NCBI GenBank assembly: GCA_964016885.1
Contig: OZ024741.1
Span: 219,728,001-219,792,000 of the forward strand
Reading direction: 5' to 3'
From: Eledone cirrhosa
Taxonomy: Eukaryota
Length of the DNA stretch: 64,000 bases
The notes beneath the pieces are model-generated. The model was not told the origin of the DNA and made no database searches. It was given only the letters and a program-made list of their open reading frames with translations. Shown here piece by piece: positions 1,737-59,836 of the stretch. The position numbers and the translations under genes are program-made. Position 1 is the first letter of the stretch, and every line of letters begins with the position of its first letter.

Positions 1737-1948
1737 TGAGTGGTTAGATAATTGGATTCACAATCTTGAGGTTGTGAGTTCGATTCCTGGACCGGGCGAT
1801 GCGCTATATCCTTGAGCAAGACACTTTATTTCACACTGCTCCTTCTACCTGGAGTTGCGACCGATAGATAGTATTAGCAATTGGAAAAAGTGTTACCAAC
1901 GGAAAAAGTGTTCCCCCGGTCCGATTTGACGAAAGTCGATCGTTCCTA

Positions 1949-1950
<2 letters not shown>
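1737..1950 (+). mobile_element. Second tRNA-derived SINE type (related heads at ~1235-1320 minus and 55705-55915 minus)
   Basis: A-box tggctgagtgg and B-box gttcgattcc followed by ccttgagcaagacactttatttcac. Confidence 0.7.
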
Positions 1951-1994
<44 letters not shown>

Positions 1995-1998
<4 letters not shown>

Positions 1999-3884
1999 AA
2001 GAATGAAGAGTAGCATGGTTGGCTGTACAACAAGGGGCTTTATTTCAGGTAATGACAATTACTCCATTGATCAGGTGAGTCTAGGGGTCGCTAATCGCTC
2101 CAAGTTGCGTCACTCGATCTCCATTACATTATTTACCTCTGACCAACTCCTCAGAGTACAAAAACAATTCACTCAAGCAAGATATATATCGAGAAATAGC
2201 GTATAATCAAAACATCAATAATAAAATATATATGATAAATAGGTAGAGAAGTTACAGATGTAAAAAGTAAAAAGTAAAAGATAAGAAAAACGATACAGTA
2301 AAAAAGTAAGAAAATGGAAAAATAATACAAATATAAAGAAATAATGATAAGTGAGAGCATGTAAGTACAAAATATGATAGTGGTGGTGGTGAGTTAGTGT
2401 TCGTATAAGGATTCTGTGGTGGGTTTAGTGCTAACATGAAAAGTCATATTCGAGACATGCATAGATGCGTGTAGAGAGACTGAGGTAGTGACAGATAAAA
2501 GAAAAAGCAATACATTAGAAATTAATTGGGTGATACTAGTATGAGATTTAAGGGCTAAGGGTGGATGGTGAAGGGAGGTTTGACAAATGTGTGTGGTAAA
2601 TCTTTTGCTGATTGTCTTGTCTTAATGGGGTTGAGGGTGAAAGTGATGTTAAGAGATTTATGATCCAGTGACCAGTTGGCCATTTGACAGCTAATAGTGA
2701 TGGTGTGAATTCCATGCGTTAAAATCCAGGTGGTTCAGTTCTAATTTTGGGATTGCTGACTCGAATCATGGTGGTTTGAAATTTGTGAACTTGGTAGCTA
2801 TTTTATGCCTACAGAAAATTGATCTTTCTATTTTGCTGTTAAGCAGCATATTATCGTATCTTAAAATATGGAATAGATCCATATTACAAAGTCCGCAGTG
2901 GGACATCCCATTGCTGTAGGCCGTTGCTTCCGATAATTTTGACCAGCTAATCCTATATTCCTGGTTTATGTTTTTAAGCTGTCAGATTTTATTGGCGATT
3001 ATACGCCGTGAACTGCACAAAAAATACAAAAAACAACAACAGAATCTGCACTCACTAGCATTAATAAGGAAGGACTTAGCATAGTAAACAAACTGAAAAT
3101 ATCTGATAGAACCGAGCCTCTAATCCCTTGTAACCCCACATTTAACCTAAAGGATCACAAAAATAATTTCGAAATGGTCCCCGCATTTAGATTAATATGC
3201 GCATCGAAGTCGGATATAGGTAGAATTAACAATATATACTAGATAGAATAATCGCACAAATCAAGGACAAACTAGTAATTAAGCTATGGGGTAACCCCAA
3301 CGAAGGAATAGACTGGTTCAGCAAAATAGACAGTAGAGAAACATCCAACTTCGTACAGTTCGACATTAATGACTACTACTCATCCATATCCCCAGTCACC
3401 CTATATAAAGCTCTAACCTTTGCCCAGAAAAATTCGGGTCTTACCTTGGACAAATTAAAATAATACTAGCTGCTAGGAGAACTATCATTACATTCGAAAA
3501 TAGTTACTGGGAACGAAAAAACAGACAGAATAGCTTCGATATCACAATGGGATCTAACGACTCAGCACAGGTGGGAATATATATAGCGCACAACTTACAT
3601 AAGGAATTGAATAACCTCCAGGGAGGAATTTATAGAGACGACACACTCCTTTTAGCCAAAAACTTAAATAATCAAAACATGGAAAAATTACGAAAAACAT
3701 CAGTCTTCTTCAACAAACTAAGCCTAGGTATCACTTTCGAACTTAACTCTAAAAAGCAAACTTCTTAAATATAACACTCAACCTAAACACAGGATTAATA
3801 GAGCCCTTCCATAAAAATAACGAGAATCTAGCCTACATTAGTTATAACTCAAACCACCCCCGATCCATAATTTACTCCATAGCA
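1995..3884. mobile_element. Partial PLE: inverted 3' end/pLTR (1995-2998, minus) joined to decayed RT (3000-3884, plus)
   Basis: MGSNDSAQV..GGIYRDD RT motifs; the 1995-2998 segment repeats directly at ~48835-50058. Confidence 0.85.
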
Positions 3885-5765
3885 CAAAGGTTCTCAACGG
3901 GGGCATATGCCTCCCGGGGGGCGTTTCGGAACTCCAGGGGGCGTTTGGGAGCAAGGTCGCGTTAGGGGGGCGTTTGGAATGTGAGGGGGGGGGGGACTAG
4001 GGGGCGCTGGAGACTCTTTAGTTTGGTAAGTTTTAAAACCATATTTGTAAGCCTTTGAGACAGCCAGTGTCAATGCATTTGAATGACGTTGCAGACAGCA
4101 TAACTTTAGTCTGACAGCAGCTGTGAGCAGGTGTGTCAAGACATTAACCGGTAATTGAGATCCTAAAAATTAAAAAACCCACAGTCATCTGGGTCAAGGA
4201 CACTTTGAGCGCAGCCAGTTAGAATTCTATCTTTCCTTCACCGATAACAATATATTTCATGTCTGAAATTATTGACTCAACCGTAACGAGTTAACACTAT
4301 GTAGATCTATTTTATTCCCTATTGTATAAATAATATTACAACTAATAAAAAGAAAGAAAACACAGAAGCGGGTAGCACACACATGTAGGACCACATACAA
4401 CACATAAGCAGGTAATACACGCATCTAGGAGCACATGCAACACATAATGAGGTAGCACACACACATCTAGGACCACATAAAACACACAGGCAGGTAATAC
4501 ATACATCTAGGACCACATACAACACATAAGCAAGTAATACAAACATCTAGGACCACATACAACATATAATCAGGTAATACAAACATCTAGGACCACATAC
4601 AGCACAATCAGGTAATACACACATCTAGGACCACATGCAACACATAAGGAGGTAGCACACACACATCTAGGACCACATAAAACACGCAGGCAGGTAATAC
4701 AAACATCTAGGACAAGATACAACACAATCAGGTAATACATACATCTAGGACCACATTCAACACATAAGGAGGTAATACACACATCTAGGACCACATACAA
4801 CACAAAAGCAGGTAATACATACAGCTGGGACCACATGCAATACATAAGCAGGTAATACATACATCTAGGACTACATACAACACACAGGCAGGTAATACAT
4901 ACATCTAGGACGACATACAACACATATTGTTTCATGAGCTACGGACGACGCAAGAGCAATGGTCGGCCAACATAAGGGCTTCGTATCTCTTCTGAAGAGA
5001 GAAAATCTATCTGTATTTGCTGTTCATTGTGTCATTCATTGACAACACTTGGCTGCGAAGAAATTCAGCAAGCCTCTGAGCAAGTCCTTGCAGGTGGCCA
5101 TTGATGTCATCAATTTTATCAAACGGCATTCCCTCAATGAACGAATTTTCCAGCAACTGTGCCAAGATAATGACGAAGAATTCGTCAAGTTGCTCCTTCA
5201 TACTGAAGTGAGGTGGCTTTCAAAGGGCAAGTGCTTTACTCACTTCTTTGAACTCTTCGACTCTATCATTGAGTTTCTGCGAGGACGCAACACAGAACTG
5301 TACAAGAAACCCTCGATGTGAGGCAAGACTGCGCCTACCTCACCAACATCTTCGACAAATGCAGTAGCGTCATTTTGGCTTTGCAGGGGAAGAAGATCAC
5401 CTTGCTTAAAGCAAGGAATGCTGTGAAAAAATTCCTGGCCAAATTGAATGTCATCGAAAGGAATCTTTGTTGACGGGAATTCTATAATGTTCCTAGTGTC
5501 GCCAATGTTCAAAACATTGTAAGCGATGACCAACTCCAAATTTATACCACTCACCTCCGTGCGCTACACGACAACATGAGAAAACGGTTTGTCGACCTTT
5601 TGGCGATGGACATCCCAATGTGGATAGCAGATGCTTTCATAGCTAACGTCGACGATTTGGACGTTAAATTTCAGGAAGAATCCATTGAACTTCAAGCAGA
5701 TGACATGATCAAAATTAGATTTCCCAAAATAGGTGAATCCCTTTTGGGGATGCAAGAGGAAATTC
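3885..5765 (+). mobile_element. hAT (Charlie/Buster, ZBED5/SCAND3-like transposase) DNA transposon, 3'-truncated copy
   Basis: TIR caaaggttctcaac; HCVIH..LLLHTEVRWLSKG transposase motifs with stops and frameshifts. Confidence 0.88.
4370..4925. repeat. ~39-bp minisatellite inside the hAT element
   Basis: Unit approx. gcaggtaatacatacatctaggaccacatacaacacataa; inverted and longer copy at 52610-53245. Confidence 0.9.
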
Positions 5766-6834: not shown

Positions 6835-6873
6835 TGAACAAGTACTTTCATACATTCGCAATCTTCAGGTTCA
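6835..6873 (-). ncRNA. Minimal hammerhead motif
   Basis: TGAAC-CTGAAGA-ttgcgaatgtat-GAAA-gtac-TT|GTTCA; palindromic stem III. Confidence 0.7.
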
Positions 6874-7077: not shown

Positions 7078-7081
<4 letters not shown>

Positions 7082-9206
7082 ACGTCTGCAGCTCAAAGGA
7101 GGTCTTGGAGCGACTACACCATCTGGCGCCCAACACCCGAAAGGACAACGGTTATGCCTTCAGTCTTGATGTGGTCGCCCTTTATACCTCCGTACCAGCA
7201 TCCCCAGCTGTCGACCTGTTGACCGAACGAGTCCGAGCATCTAACTTACACTGCTTCGGACTCACACACACGGATATCCACCAACTCCTCTCCTTCGTTG
7301 TGGATAATGCACTCTTCAATTTCCTCGGCCACACGTACAAACAAATCTCTGGGCTACCTCTGGGCTCTAGTCTGTCCAGCATACTTGCGATCTCGTACAT
7401 GGACCACCTGGAACACAAGGCACTCAATACCTGCCAACCCAACGCCGTCGCCTTCTACTCCAGATACGTTGATGACATCCTGATACTTACTTCTTCCCGG
7501 GAGATGGCGAATGAAATTCAACGATACTGACCATCACGTCGATTTCACCATCGAACACCCAGGAGAAGACGGGTCACTCGCCCTCCTCGACTTCCGTATC
7601 AACATCTCGGAAGAAGGAGACATAAACACCACCTTCTACCGCAAAGCAGCGTGCAAGGACTTATTTGTGTATTATAACTCAGCCCTCCCCAACAACGCTA
7701 AGAGAGGCTATGTCCTAAATGAACTGACACGGATCACTAACAGATGCAGCGACCCGATGGGTGGTCTCACCCATACCACGCAATTCCGTAATCTACTCAG
7801 ATCTAATGGTTATCCCAAGCGACTGATTAACGGAATTAGAGACCCCAGACCCAATAGACAGACACCCACTAGAAACTTAAATAAAAGCAGGTGCTTCTTT
7901 AAAATCCCCCACCTGAGTGAATATACCACGAACGCCATCCGCAGGGCCATACGGACGGAGGGACTTGACATACATTTGGCCCACACAGGACCTTCGCTGC
8001 GAAGATGCCTCTCCAACAAACCCGACGAGTCAGATGGGACGTGTTCCCTCAGCAACTGCCCGATACGGGGGGCAGATTGCCTACGCACCTATGTCGTATA
8101 TAAGATTCAATGCGATAAATGTAACAAGTTTTACATAGGTAGCACCATCCGACCCCTACATGTTCGTATCAAGGAACATATCAACACCAACGCATCTTCC
8201 TTCCGTAAACACATCCTTAAATGCGGAAACCCACAGGGTAGACCCTTGGTCACAGTCCTAGCGACTGAACGCAGCATCGGATCCTTAAGGATAAAGGAAG
8301 CACTTGTTATTAAGAACCTCAGACCCCCACTTAACAACCGGGCTGAGAGAAATGAGCTGACATGGCTAACTTAACCATAGTGACCATTCACAGCCTACGG
8401 CCTGCTATCTTCACACACACGCACGTATATGCATACCCATACGCATACACACACACATCTATATTTATACACGCACACATGTTTTTACAACCTACCACCT
8501 TTCACACCCTTTGATTTCCAGCTTCTACAGCCCACTATCTTTCACACACACACGCACTCACACATATACACACACAGTTACACACACATGTATACCCATA
8601 CGCTTACACACACACATCTATATTTATACACGCACACATGTTTTACAACCTACCACCTTTCACACCCTTTGATTTCCAGCTTCTACAGCCCACTATCTTT
8701 CACACACACACACTCACACATATACACACTTACACTTATACACACACAGTTACACACACATATATATTTACACACACATATCTTACGGCTTTCACACGCT
8801 AGCGCACCCTCTTGATTTAACCCATTTGGTCAGTAGCTTTTGCCACAGCCTATCACGCGCACGCGCATTCTTTCCCTCGTTTAAATTTTAAATAATTTTC
8901 TCCCCATAACGGCATTCCTGTCTTAACGACATCACAACTTTCTCCGCTTGGTCTGTTCCCTCCCCCCCTTTTGGAACTTTCCCCCGTTGATGGGCGTGAG
9001 CCCGAAATATTGGGATTAAATCTCCACTACGGTAACCCTTCTACCTTTGTTTTGTTTTCATCTTTGTCTCTCTCAATTTTCACTTTCACCTGTTTCTCCT
9101 ATCTATCATTCACTTCCTACCTCGAGATTTCCCTCTGCATTGTTGTGGCTTTCTTAACTACGTATTTTACACATTTCGCAATGCTTCAAGCAAACATTAA
9201 CACCCT

Positions 9207-9208
<2 letters not shown>
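7078..9208 (+). mobile_element. 5'-truncated Penelope-like element (RT + GIY-YIG endonuclease, one frameshift ~7515) inserted in (TA)n
   Basis: SLDVVALYTSVP, GLPLGSSLS, YSRYVDD; VVYKIQCDKCNKFYIGST..R..EH..KEALVI..LN GIY-YIG motifs. Confidence 0.92.
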
Positions 9209-9273
<65 letters not shown>

Positions 9274-9276
<3 letters not shown>

Positions 9277-12200
9277 GATAGACATAGAATATTCGAAAAT
9301 ATTCTGTATGTTTATAATAAACATTTTGAAGACCTAATCGCTATACGTCACGTATTACAATTAGATTCTCGATAAAAGCAAGGGAAGTAACCTACGCGTT
9401 TCATTCTTATTAGAAATTTTCAGGATTACATATCCAGTGCTTTTATCGAGAATGACACAGCTAGAGACTTATAGAATACTTAGCTGTGTACAGGAACTGG
9501 TTTGAAAGAGCGGTTGCCGGTCCGGCAGAAATTAGAAATTGGATTAAATGCTCTGAAATAGCGATATATATGTGAAGATAGACATAGAATATTCGAAAAT
9601 ATTCTGTATGTTTATAATAAACATTTTGAAGACCTAATCGCTATAGAATAGAATACGTCACGTATTACAATTAGATTCTCGATAAAAGCAAGGGAAGTAA
9701 CCTACGCGTTTCATTCTTATTAGAAATCTTCAGGATTACATATCCAGTGCTTTTATCGAGAATGACACAGCTAGAGACTTATAGAATACTTAGCTGTGTA
9801 CAGGAACTGGTTTGAAAGAGCGGTTGCCGGTCCGGCAGAAATTAGAAATTGGATTAAATGCTCTGAAATAGCGATATATATGTGAAGATAGACATAGAAT
9901 ATTCGAAAATATTCTGTATGTTTATAATAAACATTTTGAAGACCTAATCGCTATAGAATAGAATACGTCACGTATTACAATTAGATTCTCGATAAAAGCA
10001 AGGGAAGTAACCTACGCGTTTCATTCTTATTAGAAATCTTCAGGATTACATATCCAGTGCTTTTATCGAGAATGACACAGCTAGAGACTTATAGAATACT
10101 TAGCTGTGTACAGGAACTGGTTTGAAAGAGCGGTTGCCGGTCCGGCAGAAATTAGAAATTGGATTAAATGCTCTGAAATAGCGATATATATGTGAAGATA
10201 GACATAGAATATTCGAAAATATTCTGTATGTTTATAATAAACATTTTGAAGACCTAATCGCTATAGAATAGAATACGTCACGTATTACAATTAGATTCTC
10301 GATAAAAGCAAGGGAAGTAACCTACGCGTTTCATTCTTATTAGAAATCTTCAGGATTACATATCCAGTGCTTTTATCGAGAATGACACAGCTAGAGACTT
10401 ATAGAATACTTAGCTGTGTACAGGAACTGGTTTGAAAGAGCGGTTGCCGGTCCGGCAGAAATTAGAAATTGGATTAAATGCTCTGAAATAGCGATATATA
10501 TGTGAAGATAGACATAGAATATTCGAAAATATTCTGTATGTTTATAATAAACATTTTGAAGACCTAATCGCTATAGAATAGAATACGTCACGTATTACAA
10601 TTAGATTCTCGATAAAAGCAAGGGAAGTAACCTACGCGTTTCATTCTTATTAGAAATCTTCAGGATTACATATCCAGTGCTTTTATCAAGAATGACACAG
10701 CTAGAGACTTATAGAATACTTAGCTGTGTACAGGAACTGGTTTGAAAGAGCGGTTGCCGGTCCGGCAGAAATTAGAAATTGGATTAAATGCTCTGAAATA
10801 GCGATATATATGTGAAGATAGACATAGAATATTCGAAAATATTCTGTATGTTTATAATAAACATTTTGAAGACCTAATCGCTATAGAATAGAATACGTCA
10901 CGTATTACAATTAGATTCTCGATAAAAGCAAGGGAAGTAACCTACGCGTTTCATTCTTATTAGAAATCTTCAGGATTACATATCCAGTGCTTTTATCGAG
11001 AATGACACAGCTAGAGACTTATAGAATACTTAGCTGTGTACAGGAACTGGTTTGAAAGAGCGGTTGCCGGTCCGGCAGAAATTAGAAATTGGATTAAATG
11101 CTCTGAAATAGCGATATATATGTGAAGATAGACATAGAATATTCGAAAATATTCTGTATGTTTATAATAAACATTTTGAAGACCTAATCGCTATAGAATA
11201 GAATACGTCACGTATTACAATTAGATTCTCGATAAAAGCAAGGGAAGTAACCTACGCGTTTCATTCTTATTAGAAATCTTCAGGATTACATATCCAGTGC
11301 TTTTATCGAGAATGACACAGCTAGAGACTTATAGAATACTTAGCTGTGTACAGGAACTGGTTTGAAAGAGCGGTTGCCGGTCCGGCAGAAATTTGAAATT
11401 GGATTAAATGCTCTGAAATAGCGATATATATGTGAAGATAGACATAGAATATTCGAAAATATTCTGTATGTTTATAATAAACATTTTGAAGACCTAATCG
11501 CTATAGAACAGAATACGTCACGTATTACAATTAGATTCTCGATAAAAGCAAGGGAAGTAACCTACGCGTTTCATTCTTATTAGAAATCTTCAGGATTACA
11601 TATCCAGTGCTTTTATCGAGAATGACACAGCTAGAGACTTATAGAATACTTAGCTGTGTACAGGAACTGGTTTGAAAGAGCGGTTGCCGGTCCGGCAGAA
11701 ATTAGAAATTGGATTAAATGCTCTGAAATAGCGATATATATGTGAAGATAGACATAGAATATTCGAAAATATTCTGTATGTTTATAATAAACATTTTGAA
11801 GACCTAATCGCTATAGAATAGAATACGTCACGTATTACAATTAGATTCTCGATAAAAGCAAGGGAAGTAACCTACGCGTTTCATTCTTATTAGAAATCTT
11901 CAGGATTACATATCCAGTGCTTTTATCAAGAATGACACAGCTAGAGACTTATAGAATACTTAGCTGTGTACAGGAACTGGTTTGAAAGAGCGGTTGCCGG
12001 TCCGGCAGAAATTAGAAATTGGATTAAATGCTCTGAAATAGCGATATATATGTGAAGATAGACATAGAATATTCGAAAATATTCTGTATGTTTATAATAA
12101 ACATTTTGAAGACCTAATCGCTATAGAATAGAATACGTCACGTATTACAATTAGATTCTCGATAAAAGCAAGGGAAGTAACCTACGCGTTTCATTCTTAT

Positions 12201-13300
12201 TAGAAATCTTCAGGATTACATATCCAGTGCTTTTATCGAGAATGACACAGCTAGAGACTTATAGAATACTTAGCTGTGTACAGGAACTGGTTTGAAAGAG
12301 CGGTTGCCGGTCCGGCAGAAATTAGAAATTGGATTAAATGCTCTGAAATAGCGATATATATGTGAAGATAGACATAGAATATTCGAAAATATTCTGTATG
12401 TTTATAATAAACATTTTGAAGACCTAATCGCTCTAGAATAGAATACGTCACGTATTACAATTAGATTCTCGATAAAAGCAAGGGAAGTAACCTACGCGTT
12501 TCATTCTTATTAGAAATCTTCAGGATTACATATCCAGTGCTTTTATCGAGAATGACACAGCTAGAGACTTATAGAATACTTAGCTGTGTACAGGAACTGG
12601 TTTGAAAGAGCGGTTGCCGGTCCGGCAGAAATTAGAAATTGGATTAAATGCTCTGAAATAGCGATATATATGTGAAGATAGACATAGAATATTCGAAAAT
12701 ATTCTGTATGTTTATAATAAACATTTTGAAGACCTAATCGCTATAGAACAGAATACGTCACGTATTACAATTAGATTCTCGATAAAAGCAAGGGAAGTAA
12801 CCTACGCGTTTCATTCTTATTAGAAATCTTCAGGATTACATATCCAGTGCTTTTATCGAGAATGACACAGCTAGAGACTTATAGAATACTTAGCTGTGTA
12901 CAGGAACTGGTTTGAAAGAGCGGTTGCCGGTCCGGCAGAAATTAGAAATTGGATTAAATGCTCTGAAATAGCGATATATATGTGAAGATAGACATAGAAT
13001 ATTCGAAAATATTTTGTATGTTTATAATAAACATTTTGAAGACCTAATCGCTATAGAATAGAATACGTCACATATTACAATTAGATTCTCGATAAAAGCA
13101 AGGGAAGTAACCTACGCGTTTCATTCTTATTAGAAATCTTCAGGATTACATATCCAGTGCTTTTATCGAGAATGACACAGCTAGAGACTTATAGAATACT
13201 TAGCTGTGTACAGGAACTGGTTTGAAAGAGCGGTTGCCGGTCCGGCAGAAATTAGAAATTGGATTAAGTGCTCTGAAATAGCGATATATATGTGAAGATA
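9274..13300 (-). repeat. Tandem array of 13 units (first 300 bp, then 12 x 310 bp), each with a hammerhead ribozyme; retrozyme-like array
   Basis: gaagatagacatag recurs at 9274, 9574, 9884, 10194 ... 12984 and the array ends at 13300; units differ by only scattered single substitutions; starts in (TA)n. Confidence 0.95.
9697..9739 (-). ncRNA. Minimal type I hammerhead ribozyme (representative; repeats every 310 bp)
   Basis: Minus strand GTAATC-CTGAAGA-TTTCT AATA AGAAT-GAAA-CGCG-TA|GGTTAC; stem I GTAATC/GGTTAC, palindromic stem III ACGCGT, GUA cleavage triplet; 16-bp distal stem attctcgataaaagca/tgcttttatcgagaat (9675-9763). Confidence 0.9.
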
Positions 13301-14310
13301 TGTGGAAGGACACCAATGAAGTGATTGATTGGTATAAAAATATAGATGATAAGAAAAACCATAAATTCATCCAAATGGACATAACAAGCTATTACTCTTC
13401 CATTACATCTAACCTAATAAATAAGGCTTTATCCTAGGCTTACAAACCTACAGATCTAACTACGGATGAACACTAATTAATTTCAACGATGAGTATTGGA
13501 CCCGCTCAGATAGAAATAGAAACTTTGACATTACCATGGGATCATCGGACTCAGCGCAAGTCATGGATCTTCTGGGGATTTTCATCTTAAATATGGTAAA
13601 TAGAAAACTGCCGGAGATTGTCGGTGGTTTATATAGGGACGATATTTTATTTACGGTTGTCAAACACAGCAATACAGAACTAAATAGGGTTAAGAAAAAT
13701 ATAATTGAATTCTTTAAAAATTACGCCCTTAAATTAAAGGTTGAAAGTGGTACCAAAATAGTTAATTTCCTTGATGTTACCCTTAACTTAAACTCTAGTT
13801 ATTATTACCCTTTCCATAAGCCCAATGAAAACTTAAATTACGTTAGTTATTATTGTCTAAAGACTTGAACATAAGTTATTCCTCTTTATCTCTCTGTAAT
13901 CAACTCTCTTTTGCTTTTCTAGGCCCCTACTAACTATATTTTCCCCTCATCTGTCTCTTACTCTATGCTTTTCTTTTCTTTTCTCTTTCTTCAGTAATAT
14001 AAATTATTTAACAGTTATATTGATGCCAAGTATTTTTTTAGCTGTCTCACACGCACCCTCTATATTGTATGTATTATATATTTTTCTCATGTTTCTCAAT
14101 ATTAAGGTATATAAATATTGAGTTTTGTCATATATTACTTACTACCATGACTGAATCTTAACCATCTACTATGTCAGGGTATGTCATGCATCATCTTATT
14201 TTATCTGGTGAGGACGTACTGTTGAAGTTAACTCAGTACCTCTGAAATATGTATAATAAAATATACTTGAACACAAGAATATTTATTTTGTTAATATTTT
14301 GAATTAATAT
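13300..14310 (+). mobile_element. 5'-truncated, internally deleted Penelope-like element (RT fragment + 3' UTR with HHR)
   Basis: WKDTNEVIDWYKNI..KFIQMDITSYY, MGSSDSAQV and GGLYRDD align by eye with the 57725 PLE ORF; ends in (TA)n. Confidence 0.88.
14197..14263 (+). ncRNA. Hammerhead motif in PLE 3' UTR (core CTGGTGA, one core substitution)
   Basis: tattttat-CTGGTGA-ggacgtactg..cagtacctct-GAAA-tatgt-ATA|ataaaata. Confidence 0.7.
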
Positions 14311-14369
14311 ATATATATATGTATATATATACATATACATATATGTATATATATATATATATATATACA

Positions 14370-14475
<106 letters not shown>

Positions 14476-14490
14476 ATATACATATGTATA

Positions 14491-50877: not shown

Positions 50878-53736
50878 CACAGTTTCTCAGCCCATTTAGG
50901 CCAAACGACCCCTTTTGTCCCTTGAAATCACGAAACGCCCCGCTACCCTATTTTTTCATTTTTCAATATACTACTGATTTTGATATCAGTAGATTACTAA
51001 AAAATTGATTAACAATATTCAGGTAGCTGAGAGTATAAATACATTCCTTGAAAGGAAATATATAAATTTAAAAAAAAGGAACATAAATGTTCTTTTTTAT
51101 GAATAAGGACCAGTTGAATTTGTTATATTCCCACCAGGAGATACCAGCTATTTGGAACATACAAGAGCAACTCTGTCTATCCCAACAGTGCTCTTATCTG
51201 GAAGAAAGTGGCAATTATATCATTTCAAATCTTTCCAATTTTCCCTTTAATGAAACGGACAGAATAAATGTTGATATCAAACTTGATGTCCCCCTGCTTT
51301 GTGAGCTTAGAGACCACGGAAGAGAGTTTTCATGCCCACGTGGGAGGGTATATTTATTAGTAAATGGTAAAATATATACAACAAATGAGTAATTGAATTG
51401 TAGTAGATGGTTTCCAGTCCAGTCAGACTGCAAATAAAATGAAAAAAATTGTTAGTTTGCTTTGTAACAATAGCATATCTAAGTTTTGTAACGATAGCAT
51501 ATCTAAGTTTTCGTATAAATCAACTTACTTTAACTTTGACTCATTTCAATTGAACCCTTGAGCTTCATGGAGTCTAGCTAACTCTTTGACGTGAGGCTGA
51601 ATTTTCCTAAGATGTAGCCAGAGATCTCCACGTGTAATTACATTGTAGTGGTTGCGAGCCTTACTGTGCTGTCTGGAAACAACACCAAACCGCCTCTCGA
51701 CTAAGTATGAGCTTGGAAAAGGCAGAACAAATCTCTTAGCCTCTGCATGTAGGTGTGGAAATCAACGCTGAATTTCCTCTTGCATCCCCAAAAGGGATTC
51801 ACCTATTTTGGGAAATCTAATTTTGATCATGTCATCTGCTTGAAGTTCAATGGATTCTTCCTGAAATTTAACGTCCAAATCGTCGACGTTAGCTATGAAA
51901 GCATCTGCTATCCACATTGGGATGTCCATCGGCAAAAGGTCGACAAACCGTTTTCTCATGTTGTGTTGTAACGCACGGAGGTGAGTGGTATAAATTTGGA
52001 GTTGGTCATCGCTTACAATGTTTTGAACATTGACGACACTAGGAACATTATAGAATTCCCGTCAACAAAGATTCTTTTCGATGACATTCAATTTGGCCAG
52101 GAATGTTTTCACAGCATTCCTTGCTTTAAGCAAGGTGATCTTCTTCCCCTGCAAAGCCAAAATGACGCTACTGCATTTGTCGAAGATGTTGGTGAGGTAG
52201 GCGCAGTCTTGCCTCACATCGAGGGTTTCTTGTACAGTCCTGTGTTGCGTCCTCGCAGAAACTCAATGATAGAGTCGAAGAGTTCACAGAAGTGAGTAAA
52301 GCACTTGCCCTTTGAAAGCCACCTCACTTCAGTATGAAGGAGCAACTTGACGAATTCTTCGTCATTATCTTGGCACAGTTGCTGGAAAATTCGTTCATTG
52401 AGGGAATGCCGTTTGATAAAATTGATGACATCAATGGCCGCCTGCAAGGACTTGCTCAGAGGCTTGCTGAATTTCTTCGCAGCCAAGTGTTGTCGATGAA
52501 TGACACAATGAACAGCAAATACAGATAGATTTTCTCTCTTCAGAAGAGATACGAAGCCCTTATGTTGGCCGACCATTGCTCTTGCGTCGTCCGTAGCTCA
52601 TGAAACAATGTGTGTTGTATGTCGTCCTAGATGTATGTATTACCTGCCTGTGTGTTGTATGTAGTCCTAGATGTATGTATTACCTGCTTATGTATTGCAT
52701 GTGGTCCCAGCTGTATGTATTACCTGCTTTTGTGTTGTATGTGGTCCTAGATGTGTGTATTACCTCCTTATGTGTTGTATGTGGTCCTAGATGTATGTAT
52801 TACCTGATTGTGTTGTATGTGGTCCTAAATGTTTGTATTACCTGATTATGTGTTGTATGTGGTCCTAGAAGTTTTTATTACCTGCTTATGTGTTGTATGT
52901 GGTCCTAGATGTATGTATTACCTGCCTGTGTGTTTTATATGGTCCTAGATGTGTGTGTGTGCTACCTCCTTATGTGTTGCATGTGGTCCTAGATGTGTGT
53001 ATTACCTGATTGTGTTGTATGTGGTCCTAGATGTTTGTATTACCTGATTATATGTTGTATGTGGTCCTAGATGTTTGTATTACCTGCTTATGTGTTATAT
53101 GTGGTCCTAGATGTATGTATTACCTGTCTGTGTGTTTTATGTGGTCCTAGATGTGTGTGTGCTACCTCATTATGTGTTGCATGTGCTCCTAGATGCGTGT
53201 ATTACCTGCTTATGTGTTGTATGTGGTCCTAGATGTGTGTGCTACCCGCTTCTGTGTTTTCTTTCTTTTTATTAGTTGTAATATTATTTATACAATAGGG
53301 AATAAAATAGATCTACATAGTGTTAACTCGTTACGGTTGAGTCAATAATTTCAGACATGAAATATATTGTTATCGGTGAAGGAAAGATAGAATTCTAACT
53401 GGCTGCGCTCAAAGTATCCTTGACCCAGATGACTGTGGGTTTTTTAATTTTTAGGATCTCAATTACCAGTAAATGTCCTGACACACCTGCTCACCGCTGC
53501 GGTCAGACTAAAGTTATGCTGTCTGCAATGTCATTCAAATGCATTCACACTGGCTGTCTCAAAGGCTTACAAATATGGTTTTAAAACTTACCAAACTAAA
53601 GAGTCTTCCAGCGCCCCCTAGTCCCCCCCCCCCCCTCACATTCCAAACGCCCCCCTAACGCGACCTTGCTCCCAAACGCCCCCCTGCAGTTCCGAAACGC
53701 CCCCGGGGATGCATATACCCCCGTTGAGAACCTTTG
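50878..53736 (-). mobile_element. Internally deleted hAT transposon with both termini, inserted in a PLE ORF
   Basis: Ends cacagtttctcag and ttgagaacctttg (10/13 match); flanks ttctaagg/tgctatgg (6/8, possible TSD); C-terminal FPSSYLVERRF dimerisation-like motif near 51690-51725. Confidence 0.85.
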
Positions 53737-55634
53737 TGCTATGGAGTAAATTATGGATCGGGGGTGGTTTGAGTTATAACTAATGTAGGCTAGATTCTCG
53801 TTATTTTTATGGAAGGGCTCTATTAATCCTGTGTTTAGGTTGAGTGTTATATTTAAGAAGTTTGCTTTTTAGAGTTAAGTTCGAAAGTGATACCTAGGCT
53901 TAGTTTGTTGAAGAAGACTGATGTTTTTCGTAATTTTTCCATGTTTTGATTATTTAAGTTTTTGGCTAAAAGGAGTGTGTCGTCTCTATAAATTCCTCCC
54001 TGGAGGTTATTCAATTCCTTATGTAAGTTGTGCGCTATATATATTCTCACCAAGTCCGTTACCTGTGCTGAGTCGTTAGATCCCATTGTGATATCGAAGC
54101 TATTCTGTCTGTTTTTTCGTTCCCAGTAACTATTTTCGAATGTAATGATAGTTCTCCTAGCAGCTAGTATTATTTTAATTTGTCCAAGGTAAGGCCCGAA
54201 TTTTTCTGAGCAAAGGTTAGAGCTTTATATAGGGTGACTGGGGATATAGATGAGTAGTAGTCATTAATGTCGAACTGTACGAAGTTGGATGTTTCTCTAC
54301 TGTCTATTTTGCTGAACCAGTCTATTCCTTCGTTAGTGTTACCCCATAGCTTAATTACTAGTTTGTCCTTGATTTGTGCGATTATTCTATCTAGTATATA
54401 TTGTTAATTCTACCTATATCCGACTTCGATGCGCATATTAATCTAATTGCGGGGACCATTTCGAAATTATTTTTGTGATCCTTTAGGTTAAATGTGGGGT
54501 TACAAGGGATTAGAGGCTCGGTTCTATCAGATATTTTCAGTTTTTTTACTATGCTAAGTCCTTCCTTATTAATGCTAGTGAGTGCAGATTCTGTTGTTGT
54601 TTTTTGTATTTTTTGTGCAGTTCACGGCGTATAATCGCCAATAAAATCTGACAGATTAAAAACATAAACCAGGAATATAGGATTAGCTGGTCAAAATTAT
54701 CGGAAGCAACGGCCTACAGCAATGGGATGTTCCACTGCGGACTTTGTAATATGGATCTATTCCATATTTTAAGATACGATAATATGCTGCTTAACAGCAA
54801 AATAGAAAAATCAATTTTATGTAGGCATAAAATAGCTACCAAGTTCACAAATTTCAAACCACCATGATTCGAGTCAGCAATCCCAAAATTAGAACTGAAC
54901 CACCTGGATTTTAACGCATGGAATTCACACCATCACTATTAGCTGTCAAATGGCCAACTGGTCACTGGATCATAAATCTCTTAACATCACTTTCATCCTC
55001 AACCCCATTAAGACAAGACAATCAGCAAAAGATTTACCACACACATTTGTCAAACCTCCCTTCACCATCCACCCTTAGCCCTTAAATCTCATACTAGTAT
55101 CACCCAATTAATTTCTAATGTATTGCTTTTTCTTTTATCTGTCACTACCTCAGACTCTCTACACGTATCTATGCATGTCTCGAATATGACTTTTCATGTT
55201 AGCACTAAACCCACCACAGAATCCTTATACGAACACTAACTCACCACCACCACTATCATATTTTGTACTTACATGCTCTCACTTATCATTATTTCTTTAT
55301 ATTTGTATTATTTTTCCATTTTCTTACTTTTTTACTGTATCTTTTTTCTTATCTTTTACTTTTTACTTTTTACATCTGTAACTTCTCTACCTATTTATCA
55401 TATATATTTTATTATTGATGTTTTGATTATACGCTATTTCTCGATATATATCTTGCTTGAGTGAATTGTTTTTGTACTCTGAGGAGTTGGTCAGGGGTAA
55501 ATAATGTAATGGAGATCGAGTGACGCAACTTGGAGCGATTAGCGACCCCTAGACTCACCTGATCAATGGAGCAATTGTCATTACCTGAAATAAAGCCCCT
55601 TGTTGTACAGCCAACCATGCTACTCTTCATTCTT

Positions 55635-55707
<73 letters not shown>

Positions 55708-56422
55708 TTTAGGAACGATCGACTTTCGTCAAATCGGACCGGGGGAACACTTTTTCCGTTGGTCTTTCCAATTGCTAATACTATCTATCGGTCGCAACTC
55801 CAGGTAGAAGGAACAACGTGAAATAAAGTGTCTTGCTCAAGGACATAACGCATCGCCTGGTCCAGGAATCGAACTCACAACCTTACGATTGCGAATCCAA
55901 TTCTCTAACCACTCATATATATATATTAGAAAGTGAGGTTCTTTCACAAAATGAAAAAAAAAACGAGGTATCCTAGACGAGTGAAGGTATAAGGAAAAAA
56001 GATGAAATCGAAAATGCAACTGGAATCTTTTTTAAATAATATATATATTTATTTGGTTCCTTTACTGGTTTCGCAGTTCTTCTGCTTTTCAAAAGCAGAG
56101 CTGTCAATACCTGAAATAAAGCCCCTTGCTGTACAGCCAACCATGTTGCTCTTCATTCTTTCAGTATTATTACTCCAAGTATAACATACATAGGAATTAC
56201 CGCGAACTCGTTGCCTAACTATGGAAACATCTTGTTGAGTTAAACAAAGCCGTGCGTTAAAACTATCCACGACGCAGAGTACTCACAACCGCTAACTGAA
56301 TTACCTATAACGATAACTTGTTACCCCATATATTTATATATATATATATATATATCAGGAAAAAAGATGAAATCGAAAATGCAACTGGTGTCTTTTAAAA
56401 AAAAAAATATATATTTATTTAG

Positions 56423-57724: not shown

Positions 57725-59836
57725 TTGAAAAAACTTTACCTTCGGATGCTCACGCAAAAAATCGATCTATTTGCGAAAAGACTTAGATGGAGAACTTTTT
57801 TCTATGACAGATATTGCGACAACCAAGACTTCGGCACCAAGGAGAGATTCGGATTTATTACCTACAAATCTCCGCCTCCGAACCCCTTGCTCTCACCCTT
57901 CGAGAATGACCTCTTCCAACTGGTCAAGAACATTAAATTTAAACCCAGACACAACCGATTCCTACAAAAACTCCGTAGCAACTTAACAGAGTATGATAAC
58001 ACAAATGACATCATGGTGCATTCGGATAAAACTGGGAACCTATATTTTGTCAACCCTGACAGATACCACACACTGATCAGGAGCAGCCTAAACTCCACCT
58101 ATAAAAAGGCCAACCACTCTTGCATCGAGGACATAAATCGCGATGGACAACAAATTACCTCCAGCCTCGGGGTCGCCGACCGCACGGAACCTCTAGACCC
58201 ACGGAGACCATACTTCACACTGAAGGACCATAAATCCGATTTTGACCGTAAACCCTCTATCAGGCTTATTAACCCAACGAAGTCCGACATAGGGAGAATC
58301 AGCAAAAAAATCCTAGACCGCGTGATACCAAAAGTCAAGCAACACGCCCGACTTAGCCTATGGATCAACACCCAGGAAGTAATCTCATGGTTCAGCAATG
58401 TAGAGGATAAACGAGACACTAAATTCATACAGTTCGACATAGAGAGCTACTATGCTTCAATCACCTTACCGCTACTTACTGCCGCCTTGGACTTCGCCGA
58501 AACACTTGTGCCCATCACCGACCAGGAAAGAAAAATCATCCTCCACGCCAGGAAAACAGTCTTACTCTTTGACGACTCTAAATGGATGAAAAGAGCTCCC
58601 GACTCACCCTTCGACGTCAGCATGGGCGCCACGGATTCGGCGGAGGTCACAGATCTTATAGGATTATTCCTAATAGCCAAACTCACTGATACGTTTCCTG
58701 CATTCGGTGGTGGATTGTACCGTGATGATGGGCTCCTTACCCTTAAAGGGTACAACCCCAGTAGTACAGATCGGGTCCGGAAACAATTAATCAGATTTTT
58801 CCGCGACTGGGGATTTAAAATAACCATACAAACGTCCCTGACCCGAGTAAACTTCCTGGACGTGACCCTCGACCTCGAAAACGACCTGTACTACCCATAC
58901 AGGAAACCTAATGACAATCTGCACTACATCCACCGCCGATCAAACCATCCTAGGAACATCACAAACAACCTGGTCAAAAACATCTCCCTCCGCATATCCC
59001 GTTTGTCAGCTAATGAGCGGATATTCGATGAACATGCGCCTTATTACAACCAGGCCCTCAAGCGGAGTGGTCTCCGGGAGGAAATATCCTACTGTCCAGC
59101 TCCCATTAGCGGAACCAGCAGGAGACACCGCCGCTCACGCAATGTAACATGGTTCAATCCTCCCCACAACGCCGAGGTGACAACTCCCATCGGGAAACTA
59201 TTCTTTAGGCTCATTGAAAAACACTTCCCATTACAACACCGCTACCACAACATAATTAACAAAAATACCATCAAACTCTCTTACAGCACTACACCAAACT
59301 TCGCACAAAACATCGTCTCCTCTAACAACAAAAAACTCAACCCCGATGGCAGAAATAACCTAAATAGCAGTGGAGAACCGACCAGGAGGTGTAACTGTCC
59401 GGATAGATCCATTTGCCCACTCGACAATAGATGCAGAGACCGTAATGTGATCTACCAGTGCAACGTGAGGACGGATACCTCCAACAAAGCCTATATAGGA
59501 CTTACCGCATGTGACTTCAAGGCCCGACTATACCAACATAGACATACCTTCCGAAACCCGGCCCGGCGTCACGCCACTACATTTTCGGGCCACATATGGG
59601 ACCTCAAGGACAACAACATCACCTATGATCTCACTTGGAGATTACTGTCCAGAGCCAATTCTTACACGGGAGGACGCCGTCCGTGCAATTTATGCTCGGA
59701 GGAAACTTTACAAATGCTGTTTTCGACGGACCAACTCCTAAACAAGAAAGATGAACTGGTTACTGCATGTAAACATAGATTGCGTAGGACTTACCTCGCC
59801 CTCAAACCCCATAATGACACGGGGGGGGGGGAGTAG
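57725..59836 (+). CDS. Penelope-like element ORF (RT + C-terminal GIY-YIG), 703 uninterrupted codons, probably 5'-truncated
   Basis: FDIESYY, MGATDSAEV, LYRDDGL; CNC..CPL..C, VIYQC..YIGLT, CNLC..E..LN..CKH. Confidence 0.92.
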   Translation: MKKLYLRMLTQKIDLFAKRLRWRTFFYDRYCDNQDFGTKERFGFITYKSPPPNPLLSPFENDLFQLVKNIKFKPRHNRFLQKLRSNLTEYDNTNDIMVHSDKTGNLYFVNPDRYHTLIRSSLNSTYKKANHSCIEDINRDGQQITSSLGVADRTEPLDPRRPYFTLKDHKSDFDRKPSIRLINPTKSDIGRISKKILDRVIPKVKQHARLSLWINTQEVISWFSNVEDKRDTKFIQFDIESYYASITLPLLTAALDFAETLVPITDQERKIILHARKTVLLFDDSKWMKRAPDSPFDVSMGATDSAEVTDLIGLFLIAKLTDTFPAFGGGLYRDDGLLTLKGYNPSSTDRVRKQLIRFFRDWGFKITIQTSLTRVNFLDVTLDLENDLYYPYRKPNDNLHYIHRRSNHPRNITNNLVKNISLRISRLSANERIFDEHAPYYNQALKRSGLREEISYCPAPISGTSRRHRRSRNVTWFNPPHNAEVTTPIGKLFFRLIEKHFPLQHRYHNIINKNTIKLSYSTTPNFAQNIVSSNNKKLNPDGRNNLNSSGEPTRRCNCPDRSICPLDNRCRDRNVIYQCNVRTDTSNKAYIGLTACDFKARLYQHRHTFRNPARRHATTFSGHIWDLKDNNITYDLTWRLLSRANSYTGGRRPCNLCSEETLQMLFSTDQLLNKKDELVTACKHRLRRTYLALKPHNDTGGGE

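Follow-up and report, generated by a model that had tools for sequence, protein, structure and literature searches.

A retrozyme-like array joined to a decayed Penelope-like element in Eledone cirrhosa: probably separate insertions, in a family whose insertions resemble those of Penelope-like elements

Does the direct junction of a hammerhead array with a Penelope-like element (PLE) in the genome of Eledone cirrhosa record one integration event, or did the two elements arrive separately? The junction lies in a 64,000-nucleotide stretch of DNA (hereafter the window, whose coordinates are used below unless a locus is named), where the array terminates in GTGAAGATA at 13300 and TGTGGAAGGACACC begins at 13301. 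The peptide WKDTNEV is read from 13303 on the plus strand, and the PLE reverse transcriptase (RT) on this strand is opposite in sense to the hammerheads of the array, which lie on the minus strand. An earlier note on this DNA had described this spacer-free run of the array into an opposite-sense PLE RT, with both parts enclosed by two (TA)n tracts, and both observations held when the locus was mapped (Table 1). Family copies of the PLE carry AAATTGAGCT before TGTGG, which places the start of the PLE part at exactly 13301 (24 family alignments). At the junction, we found neither microhomology between PLE and array nor any remnant of TA. The last bases of the array there are ATA, and 30 of the 310 unit positions finish likewise.

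Table 1. Features at and around the junction, in window coordinates.
Feature	Position	Strand	Remarks
(TA)n tract	9209..9273	.	Target of the array; also terminates a Poseidon-like PLE on the left
Retrozyme-like tandem array	9274..13300	-	13 x 310 bp + 7 nt
Predicted type I hammerhead motif, unit 13	13106..13160	-	Motif and pairing
Array/PLE junction	13300..13301	.	Blunt: spacer 0, common bases 0
Decayed RT remnant, assigned to a Hydra-type PLE	13301..13851	+	
Private internal deletion junction in the PLE remnant	13849..13852	+	
PLE 3' end (pLTR)	13852..14306	+	Finishes at the family's short end
Imperfect (TA)n tract	14307..14490	.	Adjoins the PLE 3' end

The window also holds further PLE material. 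A Poseidon-like remnant occupies 7081–9208 on the plus strand (tblastn match 7081–8353), and its presumed 3' UTR stops at the left TA tract of the array, which places three elements at one site. A 4-kb segment in which a 40-bp minisatellite accompanies a Hydra PLE remnant occurs at 1737–5765 and again at 51770–55915, the copies being inverted relative to each other, about 50 kb apart and 94%–96% identical. More PLE 3'-end hammerhead cores lie at 6868, 22682, 40206/40373, and 61169/61304, two of these being inverted pairs, and there is a Hydra ORF remnant at 57899–59794.

The features of the array support its classification as a non-LTR retrozyme-like repeat, with self-cleavage predicted. Its first unit is 300 bp and the rest are 310 bp, with 99% matches among units and a GC content of 34%–35%, within the 150–450 bp and less than 50% GC of non-LTR retrozymes. 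Like metazoan elements of this kind, it has tandem, low-GC units with one type I hammerhead per unit and is dispersed (PMC7229834; 10.64898/2026.07.22.740005), with identical unit copies on many chromosomes. The hammerhead motif, on the minus strand, comprises CUGAAGA, stem II, GAAA, CGCG, and UA; its core is intact in 12 of 13 units, and unit 1 reads CUGAAAA. Stem III is palindromic (ACGCGU), with a tetraloop as in HHR_Amex1, and the U-U at the base of stem II is as in HHR_Amex2 (PMC7229834; 10.64898/2026.07.22.740005). In unit 13, cleavage is predicted between 13112 and 13113. Because an Rfam scan of the window at gathering thresholds gave no matches, the hammerhead call rests on the motif and its pairing. 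We note that the hammerhead fold was not the lowest-energy fold and that isolated hammerheads, when folded, did not adopt the active form and were not significant (z of -2.0, -0.8, and -0.9); in published assays, self-cleavage was seen in one of nine retrozymes tested (10.64898/2026.07.22.740005). Sequencing runs X4, X5, and X6, which carry three other organism labels, each contained the repeat as one 340-nt contig (the unit plus 30 nt); these contigs had 3 differences in 101 nt, and tandem DNA and a circle look the same in such contigs.

The neighbor of the array is, by the domain order and motifs of its family, a decayed Hydra-type PLE. It consists of an RT piece and a 3' end joined across an internal deletion of about 2.1–2.6 kb (a size estimated from three copies holding both sides), with the thumb, linker, GIY-YIG endonuclease, and part of the UTR gone. 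In the RT piece, a stop lies at 13435 and a private 28-bp frameshifting deletion near 13470. The hammerhead core, canonical at the 3' end of this (TA)n-inserting family, is mutated in the window to CUGGUGA (14205–14211), a form found only there among the 24 of 27 aligned copies in which the motif was located. An ORF at locus L160 that is 87%–91% identical to the remnant encodes an RT followed by a C-terminal GIY-YIG domain with a DKT motif (assigned by eye); set against the CxCx5C linker and RWK motif of the Hydra clade, it carries CNCRNRPDF at the linker and lacks the N-terminus, and the younger-family locus L293 has CxCx5C and RWT. As in the Hydra clade (PMC8557442), L160 and the L293 family combine an RT, a C-terminal GIY-YIG domain with DKT, a terminal CxH, a canonical hammerhead, and (TA)n insertion, while the differences from that clade are that the window copy is dead and that tails in the three PLE families measured span 87–158 nt rather than 30–40 bp. 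The Naiad clade, suggested by the TA targeting, was rejected on the C-terminal position of the endonuclease and its DKT. No Pfam family matched the remnant or either of two PLE ORFs scanned with it.

To place this junction in context, we considered the insertions of the retrozyme family genome-wide, about 1,000 in TA repeats and mostly of two inverted arms. Exact junction patterns at TA tracts numbered 88 and 647 for short ends and 987 for tailed ends, with none in reversed controls; the type seen in the window, (TA)n-TGAAGATAGACATAG, accounts for the 88. Three samples of loci were classified. Sample A comprised 79 of the 88 short-end loci, omitting the window and eight tandem neighbors on contig C28, and contained 64 two-arm insertions (six of them reassigned by eye from the class set by the script threshold), 6 one-arm insertions ending in TA, and 9 fused to other sequence. 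Sample B comprised 40 of the 987 tailed loci (the first listed on C1, minus two duplicates), of which 31 were two-arm, 3 one-arm, 6 unresolved, and none fused. Sample C was drawn from the first 67 entries of the 647 and consisted of 28 loci selected by eye because no exact tailed junction lay close to them; 23 were two-arm, 2 one-arm, 3 unresolved, and none fused. On C28 (G000:C28:43,310,015-43,355,413), nine short junctions lie within 45 kb, in what looks like a tandem duplication of a longer segment carrying a retrozyme insertion.

Every two-arm retrozyme locus with TA on both sides paired one short with one tailed end (118/118; 64, 31, and 23 in the three samples). The two starts were at unit positions 1–5 and at 268–277, mostly 275, the latter 36 nt further along the RNA. 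The (TA)n target masks any target-site duplication. The arms of one insertion agreed in sequence: at polymorphic site 281 they were concordant in 34 of 34 loci (18 A/A, 16 T/T), and locus-specific variants were present in all units of both arms (L081 and L088; 18 of 18 copies in the latter), with one single-copy disagreement between arms (site 163 in L113). Such concordance would be expected if one circle were copied by a rolling-circle process or if the source array were uniform; part of it may also reflect subfamilies whose activity fell in different periods. The younger subfamily, represented by the C1 loci, is larger and about four times younger, with at least five fixed differences and arms of up to 6.6 kb. 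We also observed an older sister retrozyme with about 80% identity over unit positions 228–308 (L098:611-691, and in L113, L154, and L060); in L113 it shows the same two-arm, two-start pattern.

Taken together, the paired inverted arms, the fixed starts separated by 36 nt, and the variants common to both arms form the signature of a PLE "tail", and for this reason we consider it very probable that this retrozyme family is mobilized by PLEs. Purified PLE protein cuts and extends both strands, and the pair of neighboring sites within the RNA at which it starts defines a tail of 30–40 bp, described as unique to PLEs (PMC11167929). The retrozyme's two starts and inverted arms are like the two-strand priming, tail, and inverted 5'-truncated copy of PLEs (PMC8557442; PMC11167929), but the retrozyme lacks both RT and endonuclease and has arms that are many units long. 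Its starts also have short AT matches to the target, whereas PLE starts in vitro are non-homologous to the cut DNA (PMC11167929). Compared with retrozymes as described in the sources consulted, the (TA)n target, the two inverted arms, and the two fixed starts set this family apart. PLEs have already been proposed as retrozyme mobilizers (PMC7229834; PMC8557442; 10.64898/2026.07.22.740005). The two-arm and tail signature was not found for retrozymes in the literature searched, which covered few subscription journals, and the main texts of PMC7229834 and 10.64898/2026.07.22.740005 do not use "inverted", "tail", or "microsatellite" in that sense.

Resident PLEs show the same insertion geometry. 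Short and tailed ends were paired in 12 of 12 two-arm PLE loci from three families, in which tails measured about 87, 94, and 158 nt. Three intact Hydra-type ORFs of 821 codons (L293:3365-5827 and L297:2758-5220 on the minus strand, L294:3035-5497 on the plus strand) differ at 8–18 of 2463 nt, over 99% identity, and by these sequences their family is a recently active, autonomous one. Young Neptune-type families (L203–L212; copies 98%–99% identical, ORFs up to 938 and 1096 codons stop-to-stop) are possible mobilizers as well; they terminate in (CA)n/(TA)n, and the 3' UTR of one family is without a hammerhead core. The earlier note had taken the array to be retrozyme-like, its neighbor to be a PLE, and PLEs to be the likely mobilizers, and all three points are supported here.

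The note had gone further, reading the junction as a single integration event with a template switch, and here the evidence pointed the other way. We consider it highly likely that the array and an older PLE remnant stem from independent insertions that became adjacent when the intervening DNA was lost, since their ages differ, their outer ends are not complementary, and a source copy for the remnant was not found. Over its 4027 nt, the array shows 8 substitutions and a single small deletion; the length to be counted drops to 2787 nt if a four-unit block (units 5–8) is a later duplication, as suggested by variants common to units 5/9 and 8/12. The remnant shows 28 changes from the column majority in 1005 nt, 20 of them private, and is roughly ten times more diverged; the age gap stands under all four ways of counting (P from 1e-13 to 9e-7). 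The left end of the array is the short start of its family and the second inverted arm is missing, so that the outer ends in the window are a short array end and a short PLE end. Each of the two deletion junctions in the remnant had a single genome match, the window itself (two mismatches allowed). The closest other copies were 91% identical over the RT and 96% over the 3' end (40 scored of 4257 candidates), and a decayed source copy was not found among the best 40 of 4257 DNA or the best 150 of 30,231 protein candidates, a search in which such a copy may be missed because only these best 40–150 were scored and the assembly is gapped. A template switch would also sit poorly with the opposite orientation of the two parts, which would need two primers (PMC11702581).

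Separate arrival would have proceeded in three steps. First, a PLE would have landed in a TA repeat and degenerated there. Next, both strands of the TA tract would have been nicked by the protein of a PLE, probably from a younger family, which would have copied a single, likely circular, retrozyme RNA from the two fixed starts and so produced two inverted arms. Last, three stretches would have disappeared: the right arm, the TA tract, and the 5' portion of the old PLE. The loss may have come later, adjacent inverted repeats being probably fragile, with the inner arms lost between the retrozyme palindrome and the neighboring PLE palindrome to leave the observed layout. Alternatively, a target deletion at insertion would produce the same appearance (deletions of 1–10 kb occur at L1 insertion sites; PMC11702581), as would a one-arm insertion joined directly on the last ATA of the TA tract, and these three variants look alike at this locus.

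Comparison of loci also favors separate arrival, because fusions track the age of the subfamily. Fused loci made up 9 of 79 in the older subfamily to which the window belongs (0.19% private changes) and none of 59 resolved loci in the younger one (0.05%), a contrast (Fisher P = 0.01) that is rough, as the samples were anchored differently. Fused loci were slightly more diverged than unfused ones (0.30% versus 0.18%), a gap due largely to L122, and in L109 the right arm is only partly kept. PLEs are, moreover, common in this genome (30,231 RT candidates), including beyond right TA tracts, and their frequency favors chance adjacency: of 69 intact loci, 9 have a PLE 3' end immediately past their right TA tract. 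Contigs of four sequencing runs covering 13200–14304 include no listed piece that bridges 13300/13301 and are uninformative on the allele.

Some observations count against separate arrival, namely the absence of microhomology and of a TA remnant at the junction, an excess of PLEs among fused loci, the polarity of the fused partners, and the fact that neither an empty nor a pre-deletion allele was observed. PLE sequence was the partner in 6 of 10 fused loci (the window, L097, L098, L099, L109, and L147), compared with about 14% PLE in ordinary flanks, a figure undercounted by the library used; the excess has P = 0.001, weakening to 0.02 if the background is 25% and 0.09 if it is 35%. Five of the six partners lie in the orientation of a second arm, and three of the four with a known end type are tailed. 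The association of PLEs with array ends expected from the earlier note appeared as a weak excess among fused loci; as a general association it largely failed, as 129 of 138 resolved other loci were bounded by TA and unfused.

These features would be expected if one integration had involved two RNAs, with the retrozyme copied from the left primer, the transcript of an already decayed PLE copied from the right one, and the two cDNAs then ligated, a version of the earlier note's idea in which two primers replace the template switch. The geometry would be that of the family's own two-arm insertions, with second-arm polarity, TA at both outer ends, and a blunt join, and the PLE excess among fused loci would follow. 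Opposite-orientation chimeras that join two separately primed cDNAs have been reported for L1 (PMC11702581), although the enzyme there is a different one and the partner RNAs were contemporaneous, unlike the PLE remnant in the window. Co-insertion of RNA transcribed from a source copy that had already decayed is conceivable, but the tenfold age gap and the failure to find such a copy argue against this. So do the short and short ends of the window, set against short and tailed ends in 130 of 130 pairs, and the unmixed site 281 alleles between the arms of 34 loci. We therefore regard a two-RNA event at the window as very improbable.

If true chimeras occur in this family, another fused locus is a better candidate. 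L147 (G000:C24 ~27,127,570-27,129,560, minus strand) is a two-arm retrozyme insertion fused in the same sense to a Hydra PLE 3' end with 1 change in 1026 nt, none of them private, from the young family that has the three intact 821-codon ORFs. Its outer ends are a short retrozyme end at one TA tract and a tailed PLE end at the other. Retrozyme and PLE match over 9 nt where they join, at the short start of the retrozyme, and template switching and microhomology-mediated deletion beside a young insertion are near even as its explanation. A mobile chimeric family was rejected for this junction, which was found only at that locus, twice, in a duplicated 225-nt block. That a PLE protein primes both target strands on one retrozyme circle at two fixed sites and rolls round it, with L147 as a true co-integration with the mobilizer, is a tentative reading that we think somewhat doubtful. 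For L099 and L109, the tailed ends fit true chimeras, but age and source argue otherwise (both partners are 1.8% from the family majority, 58/3222 and 6/329, and a near-identical source was not found for either), and we lean against them.

An assembly error that removed the inverted arm and adjacent DNA is more improbable still. Long tandem and inverted repeats generally assemble poorly; on the other hand, 118 two-arm loci were resolved in the same assembly, some with arms of 4 kb, the units in the window carry distinct variants, and similar fusions occur at nine other loci, all in the older subfamily. An origin of the array by local amplification of this PLE's own pLTR is scarcely credible: retrozyme–pLTR homology has been reported in Xenopus (10.64898/2026.07.22.740005), but here blastn of the unit against the PLE family's 3' end or RT loci gave no match, which refutes this origin for that family, and the hammerheads differ and identical units lie on many chromosomes. 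More broadly, the unit had no significant match to the 3' ends of the window PLE family, the young Hydra family, or four other families, so the PLE families sampled here differ from the Xenopus case, though some other family may carry a parental pLTR. One 73% match of 81 nt was seen between the unit and the hammerhead surroundings in the L212 flank.

As physical evidence of a partnership between PLEs and retrozymes, which the earlier note had seen in it, the window junction adds little. The family-wide insertion signature supports PLE mobilization better. So far, arguments about what mobilizes animal retrozymes have relied on co-occurrence, on ribozymes held in common, and on homology to pLTRs, and the two inverted arms, two fixed starts, and strict TA targeting of this family match what purified PLE protein does in vitro. 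The pairing of short with tailed ends also offers a simple filter for separating true chimeras from chance neighbors in repeat-rich genomes. The signature predicts starts at unit positions 1 and 275, on both strands and over several rounds, and together with the natural intact PLE ORFs it makes PLE mobilization of animal retrozymes directly testable.
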